DNA of 64,000 bases from Marsupella aquatica (taxonomy: Eukaryota; Plantae; Marchantiophyta): NCBI GenBank assembly GCA_973895155.1, contig OZ316891.1, forward strand, positions 31,627,112-31,691,111. The letters are read 5' to 3'. Positions 9,879 through 47,999 of the stretch are shown here, piece by piece. Under the pieces are notes generated by a model that searched no databases, had not been told where the DNA came from, and saw only the letters and a program-made list of their open reading frames with translations. How positions within the stretch are numbered: position 1 is the first letter of the stretch; every line of letters starts with the position of its first letter. A program made the position numbers and the translations under genes.

Positions 9879-11176
9879 CCTCTCATCCCAAAAATCGAAG
9901 TCAAACTCTACTGCACCAACACATTTCAGACGAAAATCTGCCAGAGTCTGCCTTCTTTGAAGGACATGACACAGATTGGCGTATCAGGCTTTCCTCCCTC
10001 CTCACCCTTTTCTACCAATCTGACAGAGCTCATGCCTAGGTGTGCCATGATGGACAGTTATACAGGCTGTGAAAGTAAGGGATAGGGATTAGGTACATGA
10101 ACCTGTCATACAACAATGGACAGACATAGAAAAAGATCAGGACTCAAGTCAACCATTCACAATGTCATTTGAACACTCAATAGACTATTGTAGTCAATGA
10201 AACTTACTTGAGTCCATTTCAGTTCATCAACCTTCCATTTCATTCAACCAAATACTTAAGTCCATTTCATTCATCAAAAAACTCAAGTCCATAGCATTCA
10301 ACCAAATACTTAAGTATAATTTACACAAGGGATTACACAAGGTGAGCATTGGACTGCGGGGCCTGCCATCGACTGATCGCTGGGAGGTTGAGGTCTGAGC
10401 TACTGGCTAGGTCTAGATTGTGCTTGGCCCCGTTACGCTTTGGGGCCTCCGAACATTCACAGGTGAACTCTGATGCGATGGTCTAAGTTGGAAGCGCAAA
10501 TTGTTTATTAGCTACCTCGGATGTAAACTGGAGGCTTACGGAATCGTGGAGCGTTTTGTGGGGTACTACACCAGGATCACAGGGGAGTACGCTCTGTGCC
10601 CCACTAGGATCGTGGTGGAGCACTCCATCTCTGTCCTAGATGGTTCAAGATAATTTCTACAAAGCAAAGCGAGATGGTACGGTGACACTCTGAAGTGGAA
10701 TTTGCCATGCTCCCATTGACTGTCTCTTGAGGGCGTAGTATTGGAAGGCTTGAATCTGCCGCTGCCGGTTACTCGGGACTTCTTTTGACGACACGACGTT
10801 GGATGCGGGGCCGCTGCGGTGCAACTAGCTGAAGGTGCATTGGACTCCTCTGCTAGCTAAATGCCTGCACGATCAAGCCTTGCTGAACGCCGGATGAACT
10901 TCAACCCTTTGCTCGAAGATTATTGAGCTGGGGGCCTGGGGAACCTCGGATTATCTAGCTAGGATAAGATTGAACTGCAACGACATTAAGTATTTGCAAC
11001 AATACTTATCAACGCACTTGGATAAGGAGCAATACGTGCCCAAGGTCGGCTGTGTTCGAAGAAGGGCTGGATAGACACACTTGAATGACACCCACACAAC
11101 AATCCAAACAAGGTGAGACCGAGATCCAAGCTCACATTCTTTTGCATCGCTGCTCTTTGCTTCGGGTGGACTCACC

Positions 11177-13243
11177 ATGGAGTATGGCAGAACGGGTGGA
11201 TGGGAGGGTGAGAATTCCTCCCGTGCTGCTGGCTATCATGGGGCTCGACCTTATCAAGAGTTCCAGGGGCAGGATTTCTATGGACATGAGCAATTCAGTA
11301 GACAGGATTCTTGGAGTTCGCCACTTCGCGGAGGTGGACGTGGACGTGGACCTTTCTCTGCTAGGTCGGGGCGCCCCCCGTTCGTTGCTCAGCCAACTTA
11401 CGATCTCTTTGCGGATCAGTCAGGAGGATACAACTCCACCAAGGATCTGTAGCGTGCACACCCTGCGGAGGGAATTGAGAACAAGGAAAATGCACAGCCA
11501 ACCACGTCTAGCACCCCCAGGGATGCTGAAATGCCTCATGCTCCCCAAAGGACTCCGGTGGCATAGGACACAATGCTTGGCCATACTCCGACTCATGTTC
11601 AGGAGAAGTCTGCCACTTGGAAGAATGCTGCTTTCGGATCAGGGATAGAACCGGCTGTTGTTACCGAGGATTGCATTAACATACTAAAAGAGATTGGAGA
11701 AGTCACAAAGGGTGACTGGCACCAGAAACTCTTTACTACAGTGGAATGGCCATTGGAAGAAGCAGCCAACAATGTTCGACAATTGTACAATTGTGCTCTA
11801 CTTTGTTATTTCACTGATAGACCTCCGATGCTTCCCACTTTTCGAGCTTGGATAGATGAGCAAATGGTATGTGGGCGAGGCTGGCCGGTGCTGCAGGTCA
11901 AATTTGTTGGTAAGAACTTTTACCTGGTAGTCTTTGCGAGTGCTGATCATCGGGATCTTGCTCTGTCTGCTGCTCCATGGTTCATTGAACGCAAACTAAT
12001 CTTTACATTCCCATGGGACCCCACATTTGATATTCGAACAGAGAAATATACCAAACTACCAGTCTGGATTGAGCTTCCTTTTCGGGCACTGGTGTTGGAA
12101 GGGTGCCGGATTAAGATCGCGGAATCACTGGGCAAGCTGCTGCACTACATCCAGGGGGATGAATACAGCTCATACCCGCATGACAGAGCTTGTATCCTTT
12201 GGGATACGGAACGGGAGGTTCCTTTCAGCGCTCGTGTGAGGATCCGAGAGGATATTATCATCTGGCAACCTATTCAATTCAAGAATATACCATTTCACTG
12301 CTTTAAATGTAATAAGAAGGGACACTTAGCTAGAGAATGCAGAGATGGCTTCGAAGAGGCGGCCAACACGTCTGCTGAGCACATTGAAGGGGAGGAGGAC
12401 GCTCACACACCTGAGGAACTTGATGGGGTGGCTGAAGGGGACCCCGATGAGGTACTGAGGACACAATTGGCGTCGAATCTGCGCGCCAGGGGCAGAGACA
12501 AGCATTTGCCTTGCGCTGGCGGCCCATCGGTGGCAACTGACCTCAACACGGTGGAGTCCTTATTGGAACACATTGAGGATGTGCCTGAAGTGATACCGAT
12601 TCTAACTAGTGGCATTCCACGGGAACGTGTGGCTCTTGCGGGAGGAATTTCCATCCCTCAGAAAGATTTGATCACCCTGCCCACTAAAGAACAAGGGAAC
12701 CTGATATCCTCGCCTGCCCCGACAGTTACTAAGCTTTTGGCCGACGCAAGTATCTTTGTTCCGTCTGGAGATGTCAGCTCGCCTCTGATAGCACCTGGAA
12801 CCTTGGTTGTGCACTCACAGAATGTAGACCCCGAGGCGTTTTCATATCACGGAGATTCTGATGTGGACTTAGAGATGTCCGAATACGAGGAGTATGTCTC
12901 TGGTAAAGGGAAAGAGAGAGTTCGGAAGTTGGATACTCGGACGCCGCCTCCTGCAAAGAAGGACAGGAGCACTCAGGACTCTAAAAAGCAACGTTCCTTA
13001 CATTTCTCACCCACAATTGTGTCGGATGCAGGGACAGGAATGGATGGAGAGGATAGCAGAATGGAGGCTGAGCGGTCCCCTGGATGGAGGGCCGTCCCCT
13101 CTGGTGGCCAGCTCCCACTCTTGACAGGCCTGAATGATACAATGATGGAGGATACTATTGTGGATACTCCGCGTCACCGTCAAGGCCTTATCACTGCTAG
13201 GGATGGCAATGGCTCCTCCCCGGGTGGACGTGCACACATTTGA
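11177..13243 (+). pseudogene. LINE ORF1p (RGG-rich N-terminus, DUF4283-like domain, CCHC zinc knuckle); one in-frame stop at 11450-11452
   Basis: APWF..W.P.F...PVWIELP pattern and CFKCNKKGHLAREC knuckle. ORFs 11177-11452 and 11573-13243 are in the same frame. Confidence 0.85.
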
Positions 13244-13284
13244 GGATTGGCACTCTGCTCTGGTAGCGGAAAGGGGGTCGAAGT

Positions 13285-16200
13285 ATGACATGCCTACTTC
13301 GGATTGCTTCCTGGAATGTATGCGGATTGTGTGAACCTAATAGGAAAATGGTAGTCAGGAACTGGATTGAATCCTGTAGAGAGAAGATAGATATTCTAGC
13401 GTTACAAGAAATAAAAGCAGATCAATTTCGGCTGGATATTGCTCTGAGGGCTATACTGCCGCTGTATCAGCACCTCACTTCTGCACCAGATGAGGGTCGG
13501 GGTGGGTCTGCTCTGCTGATTCACCCTGATCTGAAGATATTGGCAACGGGCATGATTGACCTGGGAAGGGCCGTATGGGCCGTGATAGAATCGGAAGGAG
13601 GCAAATTTGGAATGGTTAGCATCTATGCTCCGAACTCGCCTCGACTACGGGCTTGCTTATGGCACGAGCTGAAATCACTCCTTCCTCAAGGCAATTGGAT
13701 TCTTGGTGGGGATTTTAACATGACAGAACTTAGAGAAGATTCGAGTGGGCTATCACCTTTGCTTAAGGGCCGGGAAGCCGAGTTTTGGCGTTTTTTGAAA
13801 GTCCGGCTGGATCTGGCGGATGCACTGCTGATTAAAGAGGTTACTGGCTCCCGTTTTACCTGGCGCAGATGCAGAAACGAGGTAACTGTGCAGTCACGTC
13901 TGGATCGATTTTACTTCAGTGAAAAAGGGGAATGGCTGGGGGACCTATTGGAACTGATACATGATGGGGGGTCAGCACTTTCTGACCACGATCCTGTAGT
14001 GATCATAATTCGACTGGGAGACAGGGAGGACATCGGTTGTCCCCCGGGTGGGCCGGTGTGGTTTAAAGTGAACCCGGCTGTGGTCAGAAACAAAGATCAT
14101 CTGGAGGCATTGGAAGGAGCCTGGAAGCTGGGGAAGGGCAACTGCACTGAGCCACTGTTGGCTTTTGAACGAGCTTCCTGCCATTTGCGCAAGATGTACC
14201 GTTTAAAATAGGGCTCCCCTAAAGCACGAGCGGAAGAGATGAACCTCTTGCGGACTCGGCTTCGAACTCTGAAAGAGTCCCTGCTAGAGGACAACTCGGA
14301 GGAGGATATGAGAGAATATATAATTGCTGAGGATCTCCTGCATGCTGCGGAGATGGAAGAGGCACATGTTGGGAGACGACTAGCAAGGATAAAATGGCTA
14401 GGAGAAGGTGAAGAGCCCACTAAATTTTATTTTGCTACGGTAGCAGCAAAGCGAAGCAGGGAAGCTATGAGATCTCTTACCATTGCAGACGGAGCAGAGA
14501 TTACTGAACCTGCTCACATTCTGAGGGAAGTCGCCAGACAATGTTTAGATCTGTATGCCCCCCCTGATCTGACTACAGGTGAGCTTGGGGAGATGAGGAA
14601 GGCCAGGAGCTCTCTCCTCGCTCACACTAGACACCTTAACCTCCGCTGAACTGACAAGATTAGAAGTGCTCCCCAATGGTAAAGAAATCAAAGATACTCT
14701 CTGGCAAATGCCATCTGATAAGGCCCCTGGCCCTGATGGAATGACAGCAGAGGTTTATCGGGCTTGTTGGCACTTTATTGAGACGGATCTCATTGCCATG
14801 ATACAGGTGTTTTGGTTGTCTGGCAACTTAGCTGCTGGCATTAACGATGGTATCATTAAGTTTATCCCCAAGAAACTAGATAAGAGGCTTCTGAAGGACT
14901 GGAGACCCCTGACCATGCTGAACACCATTTACAAGCTCATTGCCAAAATACTGGCCAATCGGTTGATGGTTATCCTTCCCAAGCTGATTAACCCACAGCA
15001 GACAGGATTCATTCCTGGCAGGAACATTTTGGAAAATATCTCACTGGCCTGGTTAGCTTGTGACTGGACCAAAAACAAGCACAGGGAATCCTTGTTTCTC
15101 AAATTAGACTTTGAAAAAGCATTTGATAGAGTCAATCATGAGTACATTTGGGAGACAATGCACCTGCTAGGGATTGGCAGCCATTTCATCAAGCTAGTAC
15201 AGGCTTTGCTTGCTGAACCGTCGTCACGTGTGCAGGTCAATGGCTTGATGTCTGAGACCATTGGGCTAAAGAGAGGTGTAAGACAAGGCTGCCCGCTTTC
15301 CCCTCTGCTATTTGTTATATCGACCCAGCCCCTTATGGATCTCATGGATGCGGAATTAGCGGCTGGGAGACTACTAGGGATACAAATATCAGAGGAATTG
15401 ACCCTCTGTTATCGACTCTTTGCGGATGACTTGGGAATGCTGATCCCTGCTACAGAGGAGTGCTTCCACATGGCCACAATGGTGCTACACTGTTACGAAT
15501 CTGCAACTGGAGCAAGACTCAATTTACGCAAGTCTGTGATCATACCATTGGCAATGGCTTCTATACCATGGTGGTTGACGAATACAGGGTGTGTAATCAG
15601 CAAGAAAGGGGAGCTACAAAAGTATCTGGGTGCACCATTGGGGGTGGAGCTGCAGAAGGATCATTTACATCGCTTTGTTCTTGATAAAATTGGTGCACGC
15701 TTGTCATCTTGGGCCAACAAGCTGCTGTCATTCTCTGGAAGGATCCTCTTGATCAGGCACATCTTACAGGCGATACCCATTTATCATTCTATGTTCTTGA
15801 AAGCCTCTGACGGCCTGGCAAGGAAATTGATAGCACTATGTCGGGATTTTCTGTGGGGCTACAACTCTGAAGGAGGCAAAAGGGTACCTCTGGTCTCTTG
15901 GGCTAGAATGGCTAGGCCTAGGATGGATGGGGGCCTGGGGCTGAAAGACTTTTGTTGCCACTCGGACGCTCTTCTCTCTAAATGGTTTACGAGAGCACTG
16001 GACTCCCCTGGCACGGAATGGGCCTGCCTCTTTGCAGAAAATTTGAAATTGGTTAGCTGGATGAATTTCAAGTGGATCAGGAGGAATAAGTATTCTTTCA
16101 GGGATAAAATGTTGCTTTGCTTTCCACGATCATTTAATGGCCTTACATATACTGGAGGATTATGGAAAGCTTGGATGCAATTAAGACCTCATCTGATCTT

Positions 16201-17200
16201 TTCCCCAATGGATTTAATGCTTGGCAGGTGGAATGTAATGGATACACTACGTTGCCTTGAGGGCTTTCAGTCGTGGCCTAATGCGGATTTTACGGCGGTA
16301 ACAGTGCTCTGTGGACGCTTGGGCATACGCAGTATCCGAGATCTTTGGTCAGTTGAGTTGCAAACGTGGCGTGATTTGGTTGCACAACTGGCACACATTA
16401 GAGGGTTCTCTGCACGTGAGCGAGGCTGTTGCAGGGAGTTTCTAGAGAAGGTTACAGAGATTGATGGATGTTGTATGCACTATGTCACTGGAGCTCGATG
16501 TTGGCGATGGGCGGATCATCCGGCCCCTATGAATGCCTTTCAAATTACCAACAGGCGGGCTTACTCTCTACTTAGCCCTACTGTGGAGGATTTTCTTAGC
16601 CTGAATTGCACTTGGGGCAGCACAAAATCGGTAGGTGAATGGAAGGCGACCTGGATTGGGCTGTGGAGATCCGATCTATCCTCACGGGCAAAAACTTTTG
16701 TCTGGAGAGTCCTAGAGTCCGGATTATTTACAGGAATCCGTGCTGCCCGCATAGGCAAGGGAGATGGATTTTGCAAGCTGTGTAGCGGTGTCACTGAAAC
16801 CATGCCCCACCTCTTTTCCCAGTGTGTGCATGCCCGCAAATGTTGGGCATTAAGTGCTAGGTGCTTCCAAGGCACCTTTCCTGATTACTCGAGTAGGATG
16901 TTATCCATGCTAGATCTAACACTAGGTAGAGAACACAGAACAGTTGCAAATCTATTCATTTTTTACCAGATCCTATGGTCATTGTGGTTAGGATGGAATG
17001 TACATGAGTTTCAGGCAAATGGCTGCAAGAAATTTGATCTTAGATTCCTATTATCGGAGGCAGCCGATCATGTTACTGCGGTGGGCTTGAGCTTGCCCCT
17101 GGGCAGGCGGCGCACAAGAATGATGCGTGTTAAAGAGCTTATTAATCAGGAGAGAGTGGTGTGGTTGCGTAGTCGTCAGGTTTGGATCACGTTTGGCTGA
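13285..17200 (+). pseudogene. LINE ORF2p (APE endonuclease, reverse transcriptase, zf-RVT); stop at 14209-14211 and frameshift near 14650
   Basis: SWNVCGL, GGDFN, SRLDRF, SDHDP; KAPGPDG, KLDFEKAFD, GVRQGCPLSPLLF, LFADD; C-terminal CKLC...ETMPHLFSQC. Confidence 0.95.
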
Positions 17201-17445
17201 GGTCTTTTTGGATCTCAGGGACGGAGTATATTGTCGTCTTGGTTTCTGGCTGATGGCTCGGGCATTTGTGTGCAGCGCATAGCTGGTTAGTTTGCCTTGC
17301 TCTGTATTGGCCCTTGGAGGGCTCGGGTACAGGAGAGCTGTGTATAGCTGGTTAGTTTGCCTTGATAGATATTGGCCCCCTAAATTCTGGGCGTGCATGA
17401 TATGCTTGGCTTGCTGTTGGCCCCCACTGTTGATTTGGGGCAAAC

Positions 17446-20400
17446 TGTGACGCCGCCGGTACGGCGGTTAATGAGTGATTCAGTCTAACTGCGCTCGGCA
17501 CGCGCGTTAGGTGGGTCTTAGGCCGCTATTATTAGCATAACGACAGTATTTAGGTAATCTTTAGGGGTAGGACATCATTAGGCAATAAGGGGGACTTCAG
17601 GTTTGGACTGGCGGCGGGTCGCTATTCGCACACCCGGGTTACGAGCGTGGAAGGGCCCCTCCCTCGGGTCCGTATAACGAACTTAAGGAAGCGGCCACTG
17701 ACGCACGCTGACTCAGACCGGCGGAGTGGCCGGTACACCACAAGCGTGAGCGGTTCAGCCTATGGGCGCCGAGGAGACGTCGGGGGATCGACAAGCCCTC
17801 AAAGTATAAAAGGGGAGCCAACCCTTTGTAGTGCACCAGTCCATCAGTCCGCGCGCCAGCTTTGATCCCAGCTCTCTCGGTCTCTCTAGGTCGCCACTAC
17901 TATCTCCTTTGAATGTCGCACACGATCCTCTCCAGCTCGGCCATTCGATTCTGGATGCAGTTCCTATCTACCGGAAGGCACTTGGCCGATTCATTGAAAC
18001 ACGCCAACCCGCGCCGATACGAAATCGAACGCGAGTACGAGAGAGCCATCCGCCTAGCAGGACGACACCACTACGTCCTTAACTTTGACTACCCATCTCA
18101 GAGCGAGCTTTACCGACCAGTAGAGGTATTTGGGTACTTCTTCAATGGAGACAAATATATCGGTTTCTGGGAAGCATTGCTTCGGCTTCTGGACGAGGTC
18201 TTCAATATCCCGGGTACAATCGACCTGCAGCGACATCACTTTGACCACATCCCTGCCCGGGTTCGGGCTGTCATTAACGGCGAGTCCAGTACCAACCGTT
18301 CGACAAGGGCGTCCGCACTCGCTTCGGAGAACTTCTACCAGCACCTGCAGAGCTTCATGGGAACTCGGCCATCAACCAACATGACCAACTCAGCTGTGCC
18401 CGTACCCGTACCCGTGCCCATGCAACCCCAGCCTCAACCTCAGGCTCAGCTTCAGCTTCAGCCTCAGCCGCAGCCTAGCCAAACCCCACCACCTATCACC
18501 CAGCCAGCACAGGTACGCTCCGTCATCAACGCTGTGGATCTTAGCGATGACGACGAGGCTACCCCACCCTTGACCAGGCGGCCCAGAGGAACAAGCGCTC
18601 GGGGGGCCGACACTATATCGTCCCCACCCCCTGCTCTGACCCCAGGAGCGGCCCCAGCAGACAACATGGTGACCGTGGCCGCCCCGGGCCCGTTACCAAC
18701 GGCAGTGGCACTACCCAGGCCCGATCAGGAGGATGGGGAAGTATCACCTTCCCCGAGCCAGTCACGGGGAAAGAAGAGGAAGGAATCCGCCACTACATCC
18801 AGGTTACCGTTGGCCACGGTAGCCGTAGCCAAGGTGACGATGCACCGCATGGGGGAAAACGTTCACAGCAACATCCTCCATCCTAAGCATGCGGTGTACC
18901 TGAAGACTCGGGGATTTGAGCACCTCACCTCTCTCCCCTGGAACACTTGCAGGTACTACGGGGAGGACATGACAGAATTCGTCAAGAATTATGATGACGT
19001 ACGTCAACAGACTCGGCTGCGGGGAAGGAATATGTCCCTCACAGAAGAACGGCTCAAGATGATCTTCGGGTTACTCGAAGGTGACCATCGAGTCGAATCA
19101 CGGGCTCCCGGGGGCAAGGGAGCCAAGTACCAATCTTCAAGTTTTCCCTCAGAGGGAGCAGTAGACAACGGGTTCGTGATGAGGACCTGCCTCATGCCCG
19201 AGATAGCTGAGCGGCTGGAGTTCCAAAGGTACGCTCTCCACATGATGGAACCCCGGGGGGAGATCTCCGCCGCCCAGGTTATCCAGGTCGAGAACTATCG
19301 ACCTAGGAAATGGGCATCGTACTTCGCTAAGAAATTCCATGAAGACATGGAGCGGCGAAGGAAGACGCTGTACATTGGCGGGAAGGCGTATTTCGCTAGC
19401 CACATCGAAATCATTCTTGAGTGGTACGCCCGGTTTGATCGACGAACCCTTCCCCGCATCAACGTTACAAAGCTGGTCCCAGCTAGGTGGGTTTTTCCGG
19501 CATTGGAGAGACGGCCCCAACCCGAGGCCCGAAGTCCAGCGGACACGCCAGCTTCACCCACCCCACCTCCACAAATAGCTGTAATCGTAACCGAGGAGGC
19601 GCCGGATGGGTCGGTTGTTGCAACCGTTGATGCGACCCAACTAGCCGGGCTAAGCACAGAAGTTGTTACGGCAGAGGTATTACCCGAGCCCGGGTCTCCC
19701 AAGGACCCACCGGTGGCAATTCCGGAGAATCGGACATTGCTGCAGGAGAACACTCCAGCCCCTTCCAACGTTATGTCCCCAGGGCTGGACGTCACTGCCC
19801 CGGCCCCCGCGCGTGTTGACGTCTGCCCGTGCCCAAATCCGGACAGGCACAACTTGGACCACCCGGAACTCTTCGTACAGGGTACGTTTCTAAACGGGCT
19901 TCTGGGAGATTTCTCTCATCAAATTGCCCGGGATACCGGGGAGTTCATGGCCCGAAAGGTAGCCTGTTTCTTCAATCAGGAGTTGGTTGCCGCAGTAAAG
20001 GCAGGTCGGGCCCAGTCGGAGGCCCTTCAGAGGATAGAGCGGTACCGGGTGGAGTCCGTGTACCTAAAGAATGAATTGGCGGCTCAAGAGGCTGAGCTTC
20101 TGCAACTACGACCCAAGGTTGCAAAGGCGCACGCTCTTACCGCCCTAGCCGAACAGGCCAAAGCTGGGAACGAGGCCGAGATTACCCGACTTCGGAACCA
20201 GATTGACAGTTTGAAGAAACAAGCTGTCACCTGGCAGGAAGACCTGGAGGAGGCTGAGGAGCGAGCCCAGCGGGACACGGCGGAGATAGCCACGCTGCAG
20301 GCCGAGATGGCGCGGCTCCAAACCGAGGCCGAGAAGCAGGACCAGCTGGCGGGTAAACTGACGAGCGACGCCCAGCAGCTGGAGGAGGCATGTCAGGAGG

Positions 20401-21443
20401 CAGCAGAGGAGACGGACGCGGCGAGGCGAGAGAACGAATCTCTGCTGGACCAGGTCCAGCTCCTCAAAGCGGACAATGACAGGCTTCGAAGGCAGCGGGA
20501 TGGCCGTTCCCATTCGGGCGGCTCTGGCAAGCGTGCCAGGCATTAGCGGCAGAGTAGGAGTAGATTAGGATTAGGATTGGCTTAGTCAGGATCTTGGGAC
20601 AGGCACCTGCCTTTGGTACAGCAGCGCTGCCCTGCTGTCCAGCCTGCGTAGATTAGGATCTTCTAATAAGACACAGCCGTTTTCCGGCCTGACCATCAGC
20701 TTAGTTAGGACCTTAGTCAGCGAATCTTCGGCGAGAGGACACCCCGTCCCTCAGCTCTTAGTATTTAGTGCACCCCTCGGTAGAGGCAGGGGGGGTTTTA
20801 GTTTCAGAGTTGGACATCCGCGGGATATGCGGGGAGTCCCGACCTCTGGGAATGAAAGAGTACCAAGGGGAGGGGGTAGGACTAAGCTCGCCGGGCGAGT
20901 GTGGAGCCGGGCTCCGTTGTAGTGTGCACCCTCGGCCTTGAACCTGTTCATTCCAGGCCTGTCGGGTCAACTAAGTGTACGCATGTGTTTCCCTTTGTAG
21001 TAAAATCCTTTCCCATCATTTTCCTTCGTGTAAATCGAGATTGTATGCATGTGTACGCATATGTGTGTGGGTTTCTTGTATATGGGTGGCAGCGCCAGGC
21101 CGAACGCACTACCCGAGACGTGCACATGGTGCAGCCTGCGGGTAAGTGGTTGCGAGCACGGGTTGAGGACCTGTATCATCAAATCCGGATCGAAGGCGGA
21201 CAGCACGAAGGCTTAGAAGCCCTTAAGCCGGGGTCGATCCTGCTATCGACTAAGGTACGTTCCGGCGGCGGAACACAAACCATACCTAGGAGGTGTCCGT
21301 ATTTAGCAGTATGCGCACTTAGCGCTAGTTTACGAGAATAAGGTGTATTATGTGCTTCCCTTCCTGCCCGAACCCTCAGATTTACGAGGGATGTGCCCAT
21401 CTAAGCTGAAGTCTGAGTTAAGGCCGAAGCCGACGGCGTGACA
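17446..21443 (+). mobile_element. 3998-bp TG..CA element (solo-LTR-like) copy A, protein-coding
   Basis: 5-bp TSD CAAAC at 17441-17445 and 21444-21448. Ends TGTGACGCCGCCGG / CCGACGGCGTGACA (12/14 inverted match). No gag, pol or terminal direct repeats. Confidence 0.9.
17913..20546 (+). CDS. 877-aa protein of unknown function: QP/Pro-rich region, plant-transposon accessory-like central domain, long C-terminal coiled coil, basic NLS-like motifs
   Basis: Uninterrupted 2.6-kb ORF with TATAAAAGG ~100 bp upstream (~17805), RGKKRKE and GKRARH basic motifs, and a heptad-rich C-terminus. A collinear decayed homolog lies at 35312-37978. Confidence 0.85.
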   Translation: MSHTILSSSAIRFWMQFLSTGRHLADSLKHANPRRYEIEREYERAIRLAGRHHYVLNFDYPSQSELYRPVEVFGYFFNGDKYIGFWEALLRLLDEVFNIPGTIDLQRHHFDHIPARVRAVINGESSTNRSTRASALASENFYQHLQSFMGTRPSTNMTNSAVPVPVPVPMQPQPQPQAQLQLQPQPQPSQTPPPITQPAQVRSVINAVDLSDDDEATPPLTRRPRGTSARGADTISSPPPALTPGAAPADNMVTVAAPGPLPTAVALPRPDQEDGEVSPSPSQSRGKKRKESATTSRLPLATVAVAKVTMHRMGENVHSNILHPKHAVYLKTRGFEHLTSLPWNTCRYYGEDMTEFVKNYDDVRQQTRLRGRNMSLTEERLKMIFGLLEGDHRVESRAPGGKGAKYQSSSFPSEGAVDNGFVMRTCLMPEIAERLEFQRYALHMMEPRGEISAAQVIQVENYRPRKWASYFAKKFHEDMERRRKTLYIGGKAYFASHIEIILEWYARFDRRTLPRINVTKLVPARWVFPALERRPQPEARSPADTPASPTPPPQIAVIVTEEAPDGSVVATVDATQLAGLSTEVVTAEVLPEPGSPKDPPVAIPENRTLLQENTPAPSNVMSPGLDVTAPAPARVDVCPCPNPDRHNLDHPELFVQGTFLNGLLGDFSHQIARDTGEFMARKVACFFNQELVAAVKAGRAQSEALQRIERYRVESVYLKNELAAQEAELLQLRPKVAKAHALTALAEQAKAGNEAEITRLRNQIDSLKKQAVTWQEDLEEAEERAQRDTAEIATLQAEMARLQTEAEKQDQLAGKLTSDAQQLEEACQEAAEETDAARRENESLLDQVQLLKADNDRLRRQRDGRSHSGGSGKRARH

Positions 21444-21599
21444 CAAACACAATCTGCGTCCCCCTGCCACGGGGTCTTTCGTGGTTATAGTAATAAAAGA
21501 AAACAAACTTCAAGGAAGTATAATTTAGGTTGTCTTATGGGTCCACTACAAAAAGGGTTCAAGTTGTAAGATGGTGGAATTAGTAGCAGTCATGCTGGT

Positions 21600-22235
21600 C
21601 TAGTCATGGGTACTTGGGATATCAGAACCCTCTCGGATGACATGGCGAGTACAGTAAATCATGCGCCACTGTCCAATGTCCCAGGTGTCTCGGCCCCTCA
21701 CCCTTCTCCTCAAGTGCCTGTCTGCTGTTGGTCCTTCATCACGACACCATGCACGAGGGCATCTACGACATTGGAAAAAATCCCAAATGCCCTCCCGATA
21801 CTCCTTACAGACCTCACAGTAATGTCGTGGGCATATAAGAGCATCGGGATGTGCATCAGGGTTATCTGGATGGCGGGTGAAAGGCATTTCCCCCAATCGC
21901 AGAAGTGTCCGGAGACAACCCACATGGTAAAATGAGTAGCAGTCATCATGAGAACACTGGATCACAAGGGGCTCATATGTGGTGGGTCTCAAGGTTCTGC
22001 CAAGGAGTCCACAACCAAAACATCTTCCTTTGTTTTGCTGATAGATGTCACAAAGCCAAGCTGCAGCCCAATCATGACCTCTGGAAATGACAATCCGCTG
22101 ACATGTAGGTCCATGGCCATCTTCCTCATCAGGGTTGTGGCCATCAACTACATAATGAAAATGGCGACCACAAGGGCCATCACAAAACAAAATAGTTCCT
22201 CCCTCATCACATTCAAAACAGCAAGGGGGATCCAT
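21600..22235 (-). CDS. EDM2-type composite PHD-finger protein (exon or possibly degenerate gene) carried inside the P-like element
   Basis: CFECDEGGTILFCDGPCGRHFH..C..WLCD..RCFGCG..IQCSHDDCYSFYHVGC..ICPRHYCEVC..QCRRCPRAW..RMIYCTRH follows the Cys/His order of the plant EDM2 PHD cluster. One expected Cys appears replaced (CDIY). Confidence 0.75.
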   Translation of the reverse strand: MDPPCCFECDEGGTILFCDGPCGRHFHYVVDGHNPDEEDGHGPTCQRIVISRGHDWAAAWLCDIYQQNKGRCFGCGLLGRTLRPTTYEPLVIQCSHDDCYSFYHVGCLRTLLRLGEMPFTRHPDNPDAHPDALICPRHYCEVCKEYREGIWDFFQCRRCPRAWCRDEGPTADRHLRRRVRGRDTWDIGQWRMIYCTRHVIREGSDIPSTHD

Positions 22236-22475
22236 ACGAAGGTGCTCCTATGCCCAAATCTTGGATCCAGCAACTGACGAGCAATGTGTGCCATGCTGAA
22301 CAAGATCTGCAAAATTACCTTCAAAAATTAGGGGCAGGCATAGGGGCAGGCATGTGATATACCAGAAGGAGCGATAGTCCACCAGCAATCATAGCCAATA
22401 GGCACCACCAGGGGCATGACTTCCTTGTGGGCTCCTTGGATCCATCCTGCAATGTGAGCAATGCAGAATCAGAAG

Positions 22476-23018
22476 TTAACAACTTGAGTGTGCATCACCA
22501 TCATGGGCAGAACCTGGACGTGTCCCACCACAGACACAATCATTGATGAAATGATAGGTGTTCCACGCCAGGCAACCACCCCATGACATTCTTGCCATGT
22601 ACTGTGAAAAAGTCTGCACTATGTTAGAGTCGAGGTTAGAGTCACCTCCCCTACAACGATCACATGTCTGGGTGTGACAATGGAGACAAGCCTCCAAGAA
22701 GACATGGTCCTCATCCAGCACCACATCTGTTTGTTCAACTAGACGGATACTGTTTGGGGCTGGTGGGGATGTACTTAGCCTCCGGTAATGGTTGCGAGGC
22801 ACAGATGGATAGCCCCAGGTCACAGCACAGTCTGTAGGCACGATCCCATAATGGATCATCTTCACACAAAAGCACTCACCCTTCTGTCGATGGTACTCAG
22901 ACAATACACTGCGTGTGACAACCATCTTCAGTGCACTAGACAGAGATTGTGCCCACTCCAACAAAATGACAAGGCCACAACAAGGTATCACGATTGACCT
23001 TAGCAAGGGCCTGAACAC
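22476..23018 (-). other. Cys/His-rich ORF, possibly an upstream exon or a second cargo gene
   Basis: CFC..H, CLHCHTQTCDRC and CVC motifs; same strand as and directly upstream of the PHD ORF. Confidence 0.3.
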
Positions 23019-23685: not shown

Positions 23686-26600
23686 TGTTTCATTCAATGT
23701 ATTCACCAACAATGATCACGCTTCTCTTAGGAGTGTAAGAATATATGGGTTACATTGATGGGCAGTTATGTAACTGCCCTAACTCCTAATTGTCACTTAG
23801 AGTGTAATCTACATCTTATAACACTCCCCCTTGGTTCTTTGAAGTGATTAGAAAAAGAACCACTCTATGGAGATTGTAACTCTAAGTGTTAATTATTTGA
23901 TCCTTATAAGTAGTATGGCCTCATTAAAACTTTCCCGCTTTCTTCTGAAAGAAAGAGTGCCACTACTGTACAAGTAATAAGGTCATCGAAATACATTTAG
24001 GGTAATCTAATGAGAACTTTATAGTGAAAGTTTCGTGCAGTTTCGAGAGTTTTAGTTCTAGCTGTGAGTTTGTAGTAGAGTAGATAGACGACGCATCCCA
24101 ATACCATGTGTGTGATCGTGGTGAACTGAAGGTGGGAGGGGCTTAGTGAAGAGATCTGCGCGATTATCTTTACTTGCAATCCAATGAACTTGAATCTGAT
24201 CGCCATGCTGTTCGTGAGTGTAGAAAAATTTGGGGGCAATATGCTTTATCCGATCTCCTTTGATAAAGCCTTGTGTAACTTGATCGACGCAAGGGCAATT
24301 GTCCTCGTAGATAGTTGTTGGAGCGTTGAGAAGTGGACGACCTGTATGCTGATTAATGTGATCAATTAGTTGCCTGAGCCAGATGCATTCACGACTTGCT
24401 TCGTAAAGGGCAATGATTTCTGCATGGTTCGAGGACGTTGTCGTGAGGGTTTGTTTGGAGCTTCGCCAAGATATCGCGGTGCTGCCTTGGAGAAATACAT
24501 ACCCGGTTTGCGATTTAGCATCATCCGGGTCCGAAAGGTATCCAGCATCAGCAAATCCGATGAGTTCAGAAGGAGCATCGTTGGGAAAGAACAATCCCAA
24601 GTCAAGTGTGCCCTGTATGTATCGAAAAATTCGCTTTACGCCATTCCAGTGTCTTATTGTTGGTTGTGAACTATGACGAGCAAGAAGGTTAACAGCGAAT
24701 GAAATGCCAGGGCGTGTGTGATTCGCTAAGTACATGAGCGCACCAATTGCTGAAAGATAGGGTTTTTCTGCTCCAAGTATCTGCTCTGTTTCTGTGCGTT
24801 TCTTGAATGTATCTCGATTCGGGTCCAGAGATCTCAGTTCCATTGGAGTGCTCACTGGATGAGCTTTATCCATGTTGAACTGCTTTACAATCTTTCTTGC
24901 ATAAGTTGCTTGATTAATAAGTATGCCGCCCTGCACATAGTCAAATTGAAGTCCAAGACAGTACTTGGGTTCTCCTAGATCTCGCATTTGAAATGTTGTT
25001 TTCAATGTTGCCATTGTTTCTTTAACTATTGTAGGTGTACCGAAGATGTTAATATCGTCTACATAAATAGCGACGATTATGTAATCTGTGTCATGTTGTT
25101 TAAGAAAAAGACAGGGAGCAATGTCGTTATTGACGAAGTTCAGAGCTAGCATCTCTGCCTTAAATCTTTTATACCAGGTTCGGCCACTTTGTTTGAGCCC
25201 ATATAGGGATCGCAGTACTTGGACTGCCAATTGTTTTGTCTGTATAGCAGATCTGGGAAGTCGACTTCTCGCTTGATGTGCACTCGGCACCTGTAATTCA
25301 TGAAGAACTGAAGGTTCGTTTTCATGTGCATGCTTTAGAAGGTACTCTATAGGAGTTTTCCTTGTTAACCCTGATTGTAGATCAGGGTTTGTATTATGTT
25401 TATTCTCCCCCTGAATTCGAAATGTCATTCGTGTGATTAACTCAGGAGGAGCCTTCATGTAGATTGTAGTGTCCAATATGCCATAAAGGTAGGCTGTGAT
25501 AACATCTAGTATGTTTAGTGTCAATTTGTGCGTAAGTGCAAACGCTATCATGTATCTATAAGTTATCGAATCCATCACGGGTGAGTAAGTAAGGTCAAAG
25601 TCACGTCCTGGGATTTGCGTATAGCCTTTAGCAACCAGTCGTGCTTTGTACCGAATTATTTCTCCTTGAGCGTTTCTTTTCCGTGTGAAAATGAATTTAT
25701 ATCCGATAAGTGATGTGTGTAGAGGGGCAGGAATGACCGGACCAAAGACTTCTCGTTGAATTAATGAGTCCAATTCAGAATTAAGTGCTATCTCCCACTG
25801 GGGCCAATCAGGCCGCTGTTGTGCCTCGTTGACTGACAGGGGATCTGGGGTGTCATTGGTGATATCCTGAGATATATCGAATGCAAATATATCATCTATA
25901 ATTGTATCCTTTCGATGCCATAATCGACCAGTATGCATATAATTGATGGATATTTCTTGATTTTCTTCTGGCTGAGTGAGAGAGTGGGTAGATGGTACCG
26001 GTGGAGGTGGCACATTCGTTGGGTTAGCTGGTGGTCGTCGTTGGCGAGGTTGGCTGTCTCTAGAGCCCAGTGGACGACCTCATTTTGCTCTTGGGGTAGC
26101 TTCAGTGGCAAGTTGGTCTGGTATTAGTATTCGGGCTGGAGCATTGGCCGCCTCTGTGTGTGAACGGGTTACTTCAGTTGCATCATTAAAAGCATCCGGT
26201 AGCTTTTCCAGCATCTGATGGAGATGTAATATGCGTCTGACTTCTGCATCAGCTTGTCTGGTACGTGGATCAAGTCCCACCGGTAGGATGGTCTGCCATT
26301 GTAATAATTGTTTTCTGCCATTCTCATCGGATGGATGTGTAGTTAGTTTCGGAAATTCGTCTTCGAAAAAGGTACAGTCAAGGAATCTGGCCTTGAACAC
26401 ATCTGTTGTGGATGGTTCCAGGAACCGAATAATGGAGGGCGAGTCAAAACCAACATAAATCCCTCGTTGGCGCTGGGGGCCCATCTTGGTGCGTTTTGGG
26501 CCTAGGATAGGGATAAGGACTAAACACCCAAACGTCCGCAAGTGAGAAATGTTAGGTGGTATACCAAATGCAAGGTAATGCGGAGTATGGGTATTAAATG

Positions 26601-29034
26601 CGGAAGGTCTATATTTTAGGAGAGCAGCTGCATGCAATATTGCATGTCCCCATGCTGTAGGAGGAAGCTGTGTTTGCATGAGGAGTGGCCGAGCTATCAT
26701 TTGTAGTCTTTTAATGAGAGATTCTGCTATGCCATTCTGAAAATGAACGTGCGGTACTGAATATTGGGTTTCTATGTCGGCAGTCTCACAAAAATCATCG
26801 AATGTTCTCGACGTGAACTCCCCGGCATTATCAACCCTGAGTGTCTTTATTGGATTGTCAGGGAACTGTAGCTTTAACTTGAGGATGTGTGATAAAATCT
26901 GTGGGAATACTAGGTTCCGGGTCGAGATTAGTGAAACTTGGGACCATTTTGATGAAGCATCAATAATGGCCAAGTAAAACCGGAATGGACCAAATGGCGG
27001 GTCAATCGGGCCACATACGTCAGCGTGAAGCCTTTCGAGGAATTTAGGAATGGAGTGAATTGTTTTAGATGTGGCTGGTCTGGTGATTAACTTTCCCTGT
27101 GAACACGCAAGACAGGGGCTCTTCAGAGATGATGGGCGCACCCCCTGGGGTATGCCTATCGTATCCCGGATTATATTATGGTACATGTTGGTACCAGGGT
27201 GGCCTAGCCAATTGTGCCAGCGCTCTGTGGGAGTTGGAGGAACTATTTCTACATGTAATGCGTGTATGGTGGTGATGTATAACCCGGGAGGGTGGATAGG
27301 CAAGGTTTCACAGATTTTCATTCCAGGTGGAGAATGGTCAATAATGTGTAGGACTTCACCCTCATTGGTCTTGCTTGTATATATGTGAAAGTTGTTAGCT
27401 CTTATGTCTCGGAAACTAATTAAATTTTGTGTGGCTTTAGGTGCGTATATTGCCGAGGTGATGTTGATTACTGTGCCCTGGGGGAAACAAACTGATGCGG
27501 GGCCGTGCCCTTCCTCAATATGATTATGTCCTGTGATGGTAGTTATGGCTCTGTGAGAAGCTATAATTGTTCGAAAAAAATGTCGATTTCTTAGGATGGA
27601 GTGGGAGGTCCCACTATCTACTATGCAATTAGATGGTGTTAATTTGCCTTGTGATTGTGCATCCATATGAGCAACGTGGGTTTCTGGAAGGGGTGTATCA
27701 TGTGTATAAGCATGTATGTCTTCAAGAATTTCCATAAAATTGCCTTGTGCATCTTCTGTTTGCCTGTTTATACTTTCTTTATAGAGCTTGACCAAGTGTG
27801 CAGGAGCCCGACATTCTTTTTGTAAATGTCCTTTTGTACCGCATCGGAAACAAGAGGGTGTAATAAACTTATCTCTTGGTTGTGCTTGGTAGCCTCTTCC
27901 TCGATTCCGTCCGCCACCTCCGCGTTGATTCCAAGTGGGGTCTTGCTGGAATTCTTGGGATTGTTGTCGGAAGCTCCCACTGCCTCTGTATCCTTGGTAA
28001 GTTCCTCTTCCAAATGCACGTCCTCGGCTCCCCCTGAAGTTGCCACGTCCGCGCCCCCGGAATCTTGAGGCCATAAGATGAGTTTCTGGTCTGGCTGGAG
28101 GGGCTGCACTCCCTGGTGGTCTTGTTTTAGCATTGTTGAGCAGTATTATCTAATGCTTCTCAGCGAGGAGCATATGTGATATCAATTGAGAATACCGCGT
28201 GAAATTCATGTTTCGATATTGAGAGGCTAGAACTATGTTAGTTACATGAAAAGTGGACAGAGTCTTTTTGATCTGCTCTTCATTATCCACTGGATTACCG
28301 CAGATAGCTAATTGGGAGGTAATTCGGAACAGTTCGCTGTTATAACTTGCAATTGTGCTGTAATCTTGTACTCGCAGGTTTATCCAATCGTGGCGGGCTG
28401 TCGGGAGTGATATGGTCCGCATATGATCGAAGCGTAATTGTAGTTCGTCCCATAGGACCCTTGGGTTGTAGTGATTGAGATATTGAGTCTTAAGCGGTTC
28501 AGCGAGATGGTGCCTGATTAGTATCAAGGCCTGAGCCTTCTGTTGTAATGTAGTACCTGCATCGGTTAAGGTTGTATCTTGCAGGTCTTTAGATGCTAGA
28601 TGTGCCTCCACATCTAAAGACCAAGACAACTAATTTGCGCCATCGATCACGAGAGCTTTGAAATGTAATTTCTCCATGATTGATCAATGCTGCAATTGGA
28701 AGTTCCGATGCTGGCTAGCTTGTAATAAGGTTCTTTGATAATGCAATTGTTTATGGCTAAGGAGATGATTTCTCTCACCGAGTTCCAAGAATCAGTTCCA
28801 ATCGAGGAATAGTGCTGCTGAAGTTTAACTGCGCGTCATCTGCCTCTATCTAAAAAAAATAAAATTTGTCACACACATCAGCTCGTGCTGATAACGTGTT
28901 TCATTCAATGTATTCACCAACAATGATCACGCTTCTCTTAGGAGTGTAAGAATATATGGGTTACATTGATGGGCAGTTATGTAACTGCCCTAACTCCTAA
29001 TTGTCACTTAGAGTGTAATCTACATCTTATAACA
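23686..29034 (-). mobile_element. Ty1/copia LTR retrotransposon (Bianca-like), Copia-1
   Basis: 138-bp LTRs at 23686-23823 and 28897-29034, identical by eye, TG..CA. TSD AAACA at 23681-23685 and 29035-29039. PBS at 28881-28896; PPT at 23824-23831. Confidence 0.97.
24058..28677 (-). pseudogene. Copia gag-pol (gag, CCHC, protease, integrase, RT, RNase H) with three in-frame stops
   Basis: All ORF pieces are in one frame. CFRCGTKGHLQKEC, IVDSGTSH, HADVCGP, RVDNAGEF, YKARLVAKG, SLYGLKQSG, YVDD, GFADA, ADLFTKPL. Confidence 0.95.
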
Positions 29035-29727
29035 AAACAAACTTTCTTTTATACTCCGAGGTCTGTTTGTCTACTATTAGTTTTCTGCTAACATGTTCCA
29101 ACTCTGATAGTAGACCCCCCCTGAGAGACTATCAGTTTTTTGCTAACTATGTGCATTCTGCTAAGCCAAGCTGCAAGTAAACATAGTTAGCAAAATTTCA
29201 TTCACTTTATAACCCACAAAAAGAGTTTCTATATGAATAGCAATGTTCTTACCTTCACAGCACAGTCAGTGCAGGATTGGATTGGATCTGATTTGGATGG
29301 CGAGCCCCGAGCACCGATCACAACAAAGATCAAGCACCGATCACCAACCAAGCAACACTCACCAAGAAAGCACCGATCACCAAGAACCACCGAGCAATGG
29401 GACCAAATAGAATGTCTCTTGCTGAGTTCACCCTAAATGGACAATCTTGCCAATGCGAATGGGGATCAGATGTGCAACGTACTTTTTAGAAGCTTCTACA
29501 ACTAAACCAGACAACAACAGACATCCAGCCAGCATCGTCCTTCGGACCTCTTCAATGAAAGGAAAGACCACGTCGCAAGCAGAGAGGAAATGCTAGCAAA
29601 AAATAGCAACATCAATGTGCGACAACATTTGCAAGAGGAGCGACCTCCAAGGGGCCATAGAAGCTAGGAGTATCACCTTCTTTCCGCCAATCCAAGCTCT
29701 ATAGAGTAGTGTCTAAAACCAAGTAGC

Positions 29728-30155
29728 AGCCGACCTCCACACGCCTCCACAGTCTACCTACTCTCCAAACTTGCACAGTAACAGTCCTTCCGGCCTCCGA
29801 ACTTGCGGCAATAGCAGTCCTCCCGACCTCCTCAAAGAGAATGGACGGACCTCTAAAACTGTGGTAGCAGCAGTCCTCCCGGCCTCCATAGTTGACTACA
29901 GCTCCAGCTTGCAGCAGCGCACAGCAATCAACCTTTGATTTCTCACAAAGAAATTGGAGAGCCTCTGAACTCGTGCCAACAACAGTCCTCCCGACCTCCT
30001 CAGTCAACTAGAGCTCCAATGTCGTGGCAGCGCTACACAACACAACAATATATCCTCTGATTCCCACAAAGAAGATGGAGCTCCAAACGCACCAACAATG
30101 CAGCTCCCGGCCTCCACAGTCGACTACAGCTCCAAGGTTGGCAGCGCTACACATC
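29728..30155. repeat. Degenerate short repeats (CAGTCCTCCCG(A/G)CCTCC-like) in the left subterminal region of the P-like element
   Basis: Motif recurs near 29783, 29815, 29871, 29983 and 30101. Confidence 0.55.
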
Positions 30156-30715
30156 AATCCTCTCGTCTCTCACAAAGAAAACATTGAGTTTGAAACTCAA
30201 TGTTCACGAATCCTCCTGAGTTTGTCGACCACCCCTGGGCCCATTCCCGCTTGAGCTTCCATCCCCGTCCCTGCAGCCGCCACCCGACCCTTATTTGGCC
30301 GTTGGATCTAAAACCCTAGACATCAACGGCCCTTGAAAACCCCGACTGGATGTCACGGGTCCCCCTACCCGCTTTAGACCCCACCCCCAATAAACTATTT
30401 TTTAGACTGAAGTTTGGTTAGAGTTGGGCATAAATTTAAACATGCATATTGTGGCAAATATGAATATTTACGACCTTACAAAACACGTGTCCCTGTTACA
30501 ATGAGACATGTGTACCAGTACATACATGACGCGTGTCGCATATAATATTTGTACCAATTACCCTTACTTTGTTGGACACCTTCCGTGGAATGTGTTTCAT
30601 TTTAAAAATGCCTATTGTTCTTTAAAGCAGCCCAACAATTAAAACGGGCCCTATTGTTCTTCCATGAAACTTTGGAAGTCTTCCGTCGAACCCAATTAAA
30701 TGGCCCTATACTTCG

Positions 30716-30757
30716 TCGCACGTGATGTGGGACTTCCGCGGAAGTGACCCCCCCGAG
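30716..30757 (-). repeat. Left bipartite terminal repeat of the P-like element
   Basis: TCGCACGTGATGT-N14-AGTGACCCCCCCGAG, matching 61174-61216. Confidence 0.85.
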
Positions 30758-32359
30758 CTCTTGCCGCTCTTGAATTTCATACTCACGTTCTCGCAGTTCA
30801 AACTCACGTTCTCGCATGTGAGAATCATGTTCTTAGATATCAACATCACGCTTGGCCGTAGAAGCCATCTCAGCACAACTGTTTGCCATGGTTCTCAAAT
30901 GCACTTGTTAATCACTACTCGACTTGGTTGCCTTTTGCTTCACACCTCTCTTGCTTGGGCCATAAAAGTCCTGAGGGGATGATGGTTCTCTCACTCCACC
31001 AGTATTCTCGACATTGTGTGACTGCGTACCCTCGTGTGTTGGTCCTGGGCAGTATTCCTGGCTGGTAGGGATAGACCTATCTTCATGAACCTCAACGTCA
31101 TCATCACCTGCAAATGACGTAACCTACTTGTTGTACTATTTAATAAAGGAATTAAAGATATAGGTGTTGAAAAAGGGACACTAATTTCAGTGCAAAAAAA
31201 AATTTGTGATAAAATATCACATAATCACTTGCATAAAAAAATACCAAAATATAGCTACACCGTGCAAAAAGAAACCAATGCAGAGGCAAAAGTAAGTAAG
31301 TTCTTACTCTCTGATGATAAATCAAATGGATTCTCTTGTGCATTTCGGTCCATAGAAGAGATGTCAGATATGAACTTTTTAGGTGGAGTGATGCGTGGAA
31401 TATCTGCATACCACTCCTGGACCAACAATTGCTCATACAGATCAACAGAAAAATTAGTGGGGAATCGATGGTCACGTCGGTCCTTGTCACCCATGTTAAA
31501 GTAAGAAACCTGCCCAGTTTTCTCCTTCCTTTCATAGTCATAAATTGTTTTAAACTTGTTCTCAATAAGTTGCCACTTCTTCTTACAAGAGTTTGGATCT
31601 CGAATAGGATTAGTGTACCCCTCATCCACCATAAACTTTGCCATTGCTTTCCATTTCAACTTGCTACTAGTCATTTTTTTGTGTGTTGAGCCTTCCATAA
31701 TGATAGTGTGATATTCATTCTGTTTTGTTGCAATGAGAACCGTCATCTCCTCGTCAGTCCAATCTGGCAACCATCATCAGAAAGCATGTCATCATAAAAA
31801 AGGAAAGGGTCCATAGCTCGGAAAAAAGCATTGGGAACTGTGTGGTCTGGTACATTCCACTTTGGAACCCGACGGTCCATGAGCGTAGGTTTTAGTCCAA
31901 TAGGAAGATAAATGAATCCCGCGTTGACTCCAAATGATCTTTCCTTTCCTCCTCTGATGACTCCTTTTTCTCGGGAACCCGACTTGATTAAGTCCTTTCC
32001 CCATTTCTTAGCATCTGTCACCCACTCTGGTTTCTCTTCTTTGTTGAAAGCACTCTCAATAAATTCTTGTATGCTTGTTTCCACCATGCAATGCCTTGAA
32101 GATTTACTCTTGAAGTTTCTCACATCTCTCTCAAGACCGCAGGGGCATTATCCCGGGAAGATTCTCCTGCTTGAATTGCCCTTTTCTTCTTCTTCTTTGT
32201 ACTGGTTGCATCTAGAGGAACGATCTCTTTCGCTTTCTCAACGGGAGTGACAAGGTCTGATTGGGCGGTGGTATTAGCTTCAGAAGGGTCAGGAGTAGCA
32301 TCAACCTTTGTGTCGTCAGTTGCAACGTCTGACTTTCTCCCACCTAAAGGAAAAAACAT
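30758..32359 (-). pseudogene. Harbinger-associated Myb/SANT (trihelix) DNA-binding gene, 5' part, interrupted by the P-like insertion
   Basis: WTDEEMTVLIATK..KWKAMAKFM..RDPNSCKKKWQLIENKFKTIYDYE..SYFNM trihelix pattern (31255-31770). Coiled coil REREFELREREYEIQERQE runs into the TSD. Confidence 0.75.
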
Positions 32360-32379
32360 AATACAATCAATTGGTTGTC

Positions 32380-32789: not shown

Positions 32790-33539
32790 TAGGGTCTCTG
32801 CCGTTTAGGGGTCTCTACCGTGCGTGGGGTAAAAGGTCCATTTTGTGACATTTTGAGACTCTGCTACACTGTAAGATCCCAAGAGCAATGATCCTATTCT
32901 TTACTCGCGCGACACTAGCAATGTTCTTTTCCTATCTCCACAAAGCACAGGGTATTCAATAGATCTTCAGCAGTGTAAAAAGTGATATAAACAAAGATCA
33001 AAGGGCTAGAGCTCACCAGGTGATCCCTTCCATCCGTCCCAGTGGGCGTGTTACGTAACTATCGCCGAAAGTGAGGGTTTCACTCTCGCGTCAGAACCTT
33101 ACTACACTCTCTAGCTATCTTAAAGGTAGAAACAAGATTTTACTTCTTCCTGTTTACCTCTCAATTGCATAATCCGGATCTTTTGTTTCTTACTCTGCAT
33201 CAAAGCCTAATCAGCTTGTTAATCTTCAGCTCTCCTAGAGAGCCTTTGCAAGGGTAGAGCATGTACATACTCTAATAAGGATCTTCCTTAAGCACGACAA
33301 ACTCTAATTTCTCCAGTAAGTTGCAGCCCTAAGTAAGTTTACCTTCTTCCTCCATGAGTCCCGACTCCTTCACTCAAATGTCACTTCCAATATAGTAAAA
33401 TGCTCTCGAAAACAAGAGCAAACCAATAGCGCAATGTAAACCTTATCAATCGTGACCCCTAGTCTAAAAAATCTTCCAAAATCTCACAGTCCTTAGGTCA
33501 GTTCCGCCAGTTCTCACAGTCCCTATGTTAGTTCCGACA
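32790..33539 (-). mobile_element. Probable Ty3/gypsy LTR fragment
   Basis: Non-coding and adjacent to the RNase H fragment. It ends ..GTTCCGACA (TG start on the minus strand) where P-like copy 2 begins. No partner LTR or TSD is seen. Confidence 0.4.
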
Positions 33540-47945: not shown

Positions 47946-47999
47946 CTTTTGTCCTTTATTTGTTTGCCTTTGGTTGTCATTATGGTTTGTCACACTAGC

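Follow-up and report, generated by a model that had tools for sequence, protein, structure and literature searches.

The locus raises the question of whether a PHD gene of the EDM2/NSD type that lies within a DNA transposon is a regular part of this transposon and, if so, what it may do there. The window, meaning the whole analyzed stretch of 64 kb, is a nest of transposable elements, and the locus in it is a decayed copy of a P-like cut-and-paste transposon with a size of about 9.4 kb after removal of the nested inserts.

Ends, nested inserts, and layout of the element

30743..30757, minus strand: left terminal inverted repeat (TIR), outer 15 bp, with a second matching block at 30716-30728, recognized on the basis of the relative L001
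30758..30765, minus strand: left copy of the 8-bp target site duplication (TSD), the reverse complement of 61217-61224
61201..61216, plus strand: right TIR; the motif block 61174-61216 pairs with 30716-30757
61217..61224, plus strand: right copy of the 8-bp TSD
29040..30742, minus strand: non-coding left arm containing short tandem repeats and, at 30311, a single telo-box-like motif
10324..21515, plus strand: LINE-1, with a 12-bp TSD at 10312-10323 and 21516-21527
17446..21443: 4-kb TG..CA element nested in the 3' end of LINE-1, with a 5-bp TSD
23686..29034, minus strand: Copia-1 with LTRs and a 5-bp TSD at 23681-23685 and 29035-29039
31258..31773, minus strand: Myb/SANT ORF (Pfam Myb_DNA-bind_4, E 6e-9)
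62002..62517, minus strand: fragment of a Harbinger-type transposase (Pfam DDE_Tnp_4, E 7.5e-12)

The metagenome locus L001 is a complete 6.1-kb relative that carries the end motif as perfect 26-bp TIRs together with an 8-bp TSD. The left end of the element, 30757, has the same ends as this complete relative and is a genuine terminal inverted repeat; an assignment of the motif to a Harbinger terminus was rejected because L001 excluded it. Another locus, L003, possesses similar TIRs without a matching TSD, with the search for TIR pairs covering 37 of the 80 metagenome loci that had been fetched by their transposase. A region of 3.3 kb in L003 (5734-9065), which is located 3' of the transposase and within the TIRs, holds an ORF of 174 codons at 7003-7527. 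The two-block end motif occurs twice in the window and never in 100 shuffled sequences, a comparison that needs to consider that the pattern was picked post hoc. A 600-bp local alignment of both ends alone yielded a score of 36, which is below the shuffle maximum of 41.

The partner of the left end is located at 61216 and not adjacent to the first transposase copy. Position 5341 was rejected as the right end, being without a TIR partner and in a region where the reads show that the family continues: loose ends at this position in X4, one of the sequencing runs described below, proceed as the window does from 60683 onwards. Outside 30757 and 61216, eight bases pair and the ninth differs, with a chance of about 1.4e-5 at a fixed place. 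Judged by their sequences, 30757 and 61216 are the ends of one insertion that encloses the PHD gene, because the TIRs match and the 8-bp TSD is common to both sides. The pairing of the TSDs therefore indicates one insertion split by an inversion or a misassembly. The inversion may have occurred between the PHD-bearing insertion and a second, end-less copy, or the assembly may have been misled through the inverted repeats.

Undoing the inversion puts the Myb/SANT ORF and the DDE_Tnp_4 ORF on either side of the insertion, as expected for a Harbinger target. The P-like element was likely inserted into a Harbinger element, the halves of which would be these two ORFs; Harbinger TIRs around the pair were looked for and none were found. 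A Gypsy-type RNase H fragment resides at 32347-32814, between the left end of the element and the second transposase copy.

Copia-1 and LINE-1 are both bounded by TSDs, as had been proposed, with lengths of 5 bp and 12 bp, respectively, and two contigs of other copies cease matching at 23685, the border of Copia-1. The non-coding left arm of 1.7 kb likely contains the promoter and the leader. The 4-kb TG..CA element within LINE-1 has a counterpart at 34845-38876 that is 88% identical and also possesses a 5-bp TSD. Both are without internal terminal repeats, contain an 877-codon coiled-coil ORF without a family match, and have a very high contig depth in each of the four runs; such an element is possibly a giant solo LTR containing a gene. 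The second one is part of a 15-kb insert (34244-49309) with 27-bp TIRs and a 4-bp TSD in transposase copy 2, in which no transposase was seen. This insert also carries a Copia element at 42075-47949 with one intact 1575-codon ORF and LTRs identical at 200 of 201 positions, as well as ORFs at 39380-41436, the last of which gave no Pfam match and has a Cys/His pattern that is presumably RING-like. A second LINE (51834-59027, minus strand), again in copy 2, has a 17-bp TSD and is 65 to 68% identical to LINE-1 in the coding parts.

The transposase and its assignment to the P superfamily

5494..10048, minus strand: transposase copy 1, about 1500 codons with frameshifts and stops, located by tblastn of full-length relatives
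33536..60682, plus strand: transposase copy 2, split by the 15-kb TIR insert 34244-49309 and the LINE 51834-59027

The two copies are on opposite strands and are 97 to 98% identical (5341-10166 minus; 33536-60682 plus). Both are broken, and replacements account for 11 of 12 and 2 of 3 codon differences in two stretches. Each of their relatives is encoded by one ORF of about 1500 residues. The nearest named ones are from the liverworts Riccia and Calypogeia, and the window transposase groups with Riccia sorocarpa proteins (support 98), so that a liverwort host is probable. None of the 24 relatives scanned matched a Pfam transposase, and a PDB sequence search with the transposase was uninformative.

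As a stand-in for the core of the window transposase, the relative P0005 was used, which is 62 to 64% identical to it. The top Foldseek matches of the P0005 model (pLDDT 74) were 6P5A and 6PE2 (prob 1.0, E 3e-3). Comparison of the core with the P transposase 6P5A resulted in a VIA Z of 16.9 at an rmsd of 4.0 with 299 aligned residues, compared to Z values of 5.5 for Hermes and 5.2 for RAG1. The EDET, SDGD, QDxxH, and CE motifs of a DDE triad plus D(2)H are present in P0017 and in the window fragments, and their catalytic roles may be assigned by analogy. Members of the P superfamily generate TSDs of 7 to 8 bp. The P-like nature of the element, as claimed in the earlier note, is supported by the fold, DDE plus D(2)H, the TIRs, and the 8-bp TSD; the names of these motifs follow excerpts of PMC3698922.

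With its P-fold core, DDE plus D(2)H, short TIRs, and 8-bp TSD, the element resembles the Drosophila P element, 1360/Hoppel, Galileo, and THAP9. It differs from this superfamily by its CTCGGGG ends, by a transposase of about 1500 amino acids with a C-terminal beta barrel, and by the absence of a Pfam THAP match in the window fragments and in the 24 transposase relatives, the N-terminal half having CxxC motifs. The P elements treated in excerpts of PMC3698922 encode a single transposase that carries a THAP domain at its N terminus, whereas the liverwort element bears one or two extra genes.

The beta barrel is predicted for residues 627-775 of P0005, corresponding to about 5500-5950 of the window. 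It matched BAH1 of DNMT1 (Z 7.2), the BAH-PHD of ORC1b (7.0), EBS (7.0), AIPP3 (6.4), and ASI1 (6.0) over 81 to 97 residues, with chromo barrels tying with BAH and all Z values below the guide value of 8 of the tool. By sequence, no BAH match of the C terminus was found in Pfam or PDB. The model is suggestive of a BAH/chromo-like barrel at the C terminus of the transposase, which is also present in PHD-free members of the transposase lineage. Among the host proteins with structure matches, ORC1b and Ash1L contain BAH readers paired with a PHD finger, and in EBS, BAH is paired with a PHD finger as well.

The PHD gene and its neighbor ORF-U

21600..22294, minus strand: stand-alone PHD gene of the EDM2/NSD type with 2.5 fingers and about 231 codons
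22476..23039, minus strand: ORF-U, Cys/His-rich, 187 codons stop to stop, unrelated to the PHD ORF

A single Cys/His-rich ORF had been reported at 21600-23018, on the same strand as the transposase and between it and the left terminus. Strand and position relative to the terminus at 30757 were right, but the region contains two ORFs, the PHD ORF and ORF-U. Translation of the PHD gene probably begins at the ATG at 22294, whose position corresponds to a Met-Ala in the alignment with P0001 and P0002. ORF-U sits 181 bp upstream of this start, and the PHD stop is separated from the transposase ATG by 345 bp after removal of the LINE, so that one long leader is followed by three closely spaced ORFs on the same strand.

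The Pfam domain PHD_NSD (PF22908) matches at 21603-22247 on the minus strand with an E of 4.7e-8, which is beyond the curated cut-off. The ORF aligns with EDM2-like proteins across 2.5 fingers and reaches the IYCxxH motif, in agreement with the EDM2 order that had been described before. A profile search of 1.84 billion proteins returned 208 matches, led by P0002 and P0003, followed by EDM2-like paralogues from liverworts and then by EDM2 proteins with an RFD; identity to EDM2 and its paralogues is 29 to 35%. A word search of 72 candidates delivered three PHD homologues with 69%, 56%, and 72% identity, all of them short. The PHD ORF, P0001, and P0002 all end directly behind the array. Other EDM2 domains, which the earlier note had not seen, were found neither by Pfam nor by phmmer of the upstream frames against proteins including EDM2s (none at E<1), and there was no match to the RFD or the methyltransferase-like domain from ORF-U or the frames upstream of the PHD gene. 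Pfam recognized no DNA-binding domain in the PHD protein. The best hit of a PDB sequence search was the PHD of KDM5B (E 0.054), a weak search for longer PHD-fused forms was negative for all 246 candidates, and a PHD scan of metagenome contigs located no locus. A structure model of the PHD protein reached a pLDDT of 34 from a four-row alignment and is not a basis for any claim. Four further proteins, P0170, P0176, P0187, and P0075, are also short, divergent, stand-alone EDM2-type PHD proteins, which could be, as far as their sequences indicate, passengers of other transposons.

The tree against host EDM2 proteins that had been proposed was built in two quick versions with 125 and 46 rows, the first using the near-full-coverage rows out of 160 matches and including three rows with the provisional label bryophyte EDM2. 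The window PHD, P0001, and P0002 form a clade (support 99) on a long stem of 2.35 to 2.63 changes per site. This clade falls outside the EDM2 orthologue group (support 87 to 88, unstarred, with long-branch warnings) and does not join firmly with any of the liverwort paralogues and orphans in these trees. The identification as EDM2-type stands insofar as the closest named relatives are PHD arrays of the EDM2 family; it needs to be restricted in that the quick trees put the protein apart from the EDM2 orthologues and its third finger is altered. Like EDM2 of Arabidopsis and the liverwort paralogues Mp1g03210 and Mp4g03050, it has an atypical array of 2.5 PHD fingers in the same order up to YCxxH. 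Unlike EDM2, it consists of the PHD module only and is encoded in a transposon.

All ligand positions are kept in fingers 1 and 2, whereas finger 3 has CxD/E in place of the HxxC of EDM2-like proteins, and the C-terminal TPxRxHxxFP motif is lost. Finger 1 has an acidic residue before the first Cys and a GGxLxxCDG pattern, as in EDM2-like fingers, a combination that is presumably the mark of readers of unmethylated H3K4. In EDM2 itself, which binds H3K9me2, 2.5 such fingers are combined with other domains, according to excerpts of PMC7529245 and PMC5364540. The PHD protein is far from EDM2 on a long branch and has an altered third finger, and therefore H3K9me2 reading cannot be assumed. A selected passenger with another ligand, such as RNA, an active mark, or a protein of the host or of the element like ORF-U, would agree with the long stem, the low identity to the EDM2-family fingers, the changed third finger, and the lost motif, as well as with the origin of some transposon-fused PHDs from H3K4me readers (in parts of 10.1101/2021.11.30.470311). 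The intact ligand positions of fingers 1 and 2 and the EDM2-like motif of finger 1 argue against it, and such a change of ligand is quite unlikely.

ORF-U matched nothing in Pfam, Atlas, or phmmer, and a tblastn match in L057 with an E of 0.21 was treated as chance. In 11 contig pieces of other copies with 12% divergence, it has a single gap and still ends in a stop codon; of the 20 listed differences, 10 are silent, versus 8 and 5 in the other frames. ORF-U is a probable second passenger gene or exon.

Distribution, constraint, and possible role of the PHD gene

Seven public runs contain part of the stretch, and the best four (X1 to X4), which come from two studies and have two organism labels, were used. 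A joint of 10315 to 21519, which is the empty LINE site, is present in contigs of X1, X2, and X3 with a depth of 1514, 239, and 35, respectively, and a second variant of it in two runs; X2 also contains a loose end that matches the joint. The sides of the joints are short (24 to 68 bases, only one of them with at least 31) at a mapping likeness of 80%; no contig of the four runs spans both the PHD gene and the transposase. The depth of the PHD bin was 7221, 451, 3510, and 33221, which lies between the extremes of the transposase bins and in most cases clearly exceeds the LINE bins, with contig depth not being copy number. The empty-site joint and the similarly high depth indicate, therefore, that the PHD gene belongs to the family, and it is with high confidence a regular part of it. 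The question raised in the earlier note of whether other copies keep the gene is thus answered positively for the close ones, with the joint in three and a high depth in all four runs, but not for the distant relatives described below.

Could the PHD gene nevertheless have come to lie here by chance, as a gene of the host or within a separate insertion? Stand-alone EDM2-type PHD genes exist in hosts (Marchantia Mp4g03050, grasses), and the depth drops about tenfold upstream of 23000. The loose ends at 22983, however, are similar to the sequence with which the window itself continues and thus suggest diverged subfamilies and not a border. Moreover, matching TIRs and a single TSD flank the gene, additional TIRs or TSDs were not noticed in its vicinity, and the high depth and the empty-site joint connect it to the leader of the transposase. 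Such a separate origin, which the earlier note had named as a refutation, is highly improbable.

This copy of the PHD gene contains a 1-nt frameshift near 22247-22249 and a conserved Cys changed to Tyr at 22042. The frame across 22246-22249 is intact in all four runs (by the inserted base in three and by in-frame loose ends in four), and the Cys at 22042 is likewise present in all of them. The PHD pieces contained 92 substitutions and one gap, compared to 94 substitutions and 25 gap letters in mixed or non-coding pieces. Gaps occurred in 2 of 19 contig pieces in the PHD ORF or ORF-U versus 6 of 13 elsewhere (Fisher p 0.038, calculated with 32 listed pieces that are not independent). In the homologues with 69% and 56% identity, the ORF ends at the same stop and, as judged from the alignment, begins at the same start, and 28 of the 29 Cys and His residues common to the homologues are retained in this copy. 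Five of the six listed differences between the PHD ORF of this copy and the runs are replacements, which fits decay of this copy and gives no sign of selection. Altogether, the PHD gene is quite probably under selection. A captured host fragment that spread without function as Pack-type cargo of a successful subfamily would agree with the broken state of this copy, the replacements, and the absence of the gene from distant relatives. It would not account for the absence of a close host source, the best named host proteins being about 31 to 35% identical, for homologues of 56 to 69% identity that keep frame, ends, and zinc ligands, or for indels that avoid the ORF, and neutral cargo is thus very unlikely.

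Neither PHD profile found the gene in any of the 80 related metagenome loci, nor was it found with any of 36 transposase relatives. The start of the transposase could be placed in 25 of these loci, 13 of which extend at least 1.2 kb and 9 at least 3 kb upstream; several are decayed or nearly duplicates. The transposase tree, which includes 11 of the loci, has none of them in the clade of the window. This indicates a gain in one lineage or a loss elsewhere. The complete relative L001 has just 600 to 700 bp between its left end and the transposase, and transposition therefore does not always need the PHD protein. The trees of transposase, ((window, P0004), P0005), and PHD, ((window, P0001), P0002), match in shape and roughly in branch lengths, which gives only a hint of co-divergence. 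The conservation of P0001 and P0002 may not be transposon-borne.

To understand their biological meaning, these data may be combined into a model for a P-like transposon with a conserved reader passenger. The PHD gene would have been captured long ago from the EDM2 family and retained by selection on the element. Its product would recognize the tail of histone H3, with unmethylated K4 as the most plausible state, may act jointly with the predicted BAH/chromo-like barrel of the transposase, and might aid loading of the transposase on the element ends or insertion into silent, repeat-rich chromatin. A protein that consists of PHD fingers alone has no evident means of locating its own element without a partner; the transposase is therefore the obvious partner, and a function as an accessory nucleosome reader for the transposase is ranked first, as a tentative assignment by analogy with a nearly even chance of being correct. 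The apparent insertion of the element into another transposon is a single case, deduced from the probable layout.

Alternatively, the PHD protein may be an anti-silencing factor or decoy that occupies the H3 tails of EDM2-like readers or recruits 3'-end-processing factors, enabling transcription through silent chromatin. EDM2 promotes full-length transcripts over heterochromatin in parts of PMC7529245 and PMC5364540, the three ORFs behind one long leader might need read-through, and VANC is a precedent of element-encoded anti-silencing in an excerpt of PMC10398659. The same excerpt has VANCs working through binding of specific DNA, whereas the PHD array here is without an RFD, a methyltransferase-like, or a recognizable DNA-binding domain. 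Marchantia repeats bear H3K9me1/H3K27me1 or H3K27me3, according to parts of 10.1101/827881, and the Arabidopsis picture may therefore not carry over. Anti-silencing is unlikely on this basis.

An extension of the accessory-reader function to a split BAH-PHD reader, composed of the transposase barrel and the EDM2-derived fingers with ORF-U possibly as a third subunit and steering the element into silent chromatin, is rather unlikely. In RAG1-RAG2, RAG2 is a separate PHD-bearing partner with a kelch core, which is absent from the PHD protein here. Fusions of PHD and Chromo domains in transposons are common, as stated in parts of 10.1101/2021.11.30.470311, and Rehavkus transposases contain a PHD in an excerpt of PMC6446971. 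As in these fusions and in chromoviruses, a mobile element supplies its own reader; unlike the surveyed fusions, the element encodes its reader in a gene of its own, with a family of plant silencing regulators as the donor. With VANDAL and VANC, the element shares being a plant DNA transposon with chromatin-linked accessory genes. VANDAL belongs to another superfamily (Mutator), and VANC binds element DNA (excerpt of PMC10398659), whereas no DNA-binding domain was recognized here. A published P-type plant element with a separate EDM2-derived gene was not found in the literature outside Repbase, subscription journals, and supplements.

The finding is less surprising insofar as transposons in general are already known to capture readers. 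The ways in which DNA transposons select silent chromatin or evade silencing are known for few plant elements. In liverworts and environmental assemblies, the results document a lineage of P-fold transposases to which no Pfam family matches. With a P-type element that retains a reader of the EDM2 family as a separate gene, the role of such readers can be tested directly, and the PHD-free relatives of the same transposase are a natural control. A split BAH-PHD reader, if true, would be a plant counterpart of RAG1-RAG2 that originated from captured host silencing machinery.
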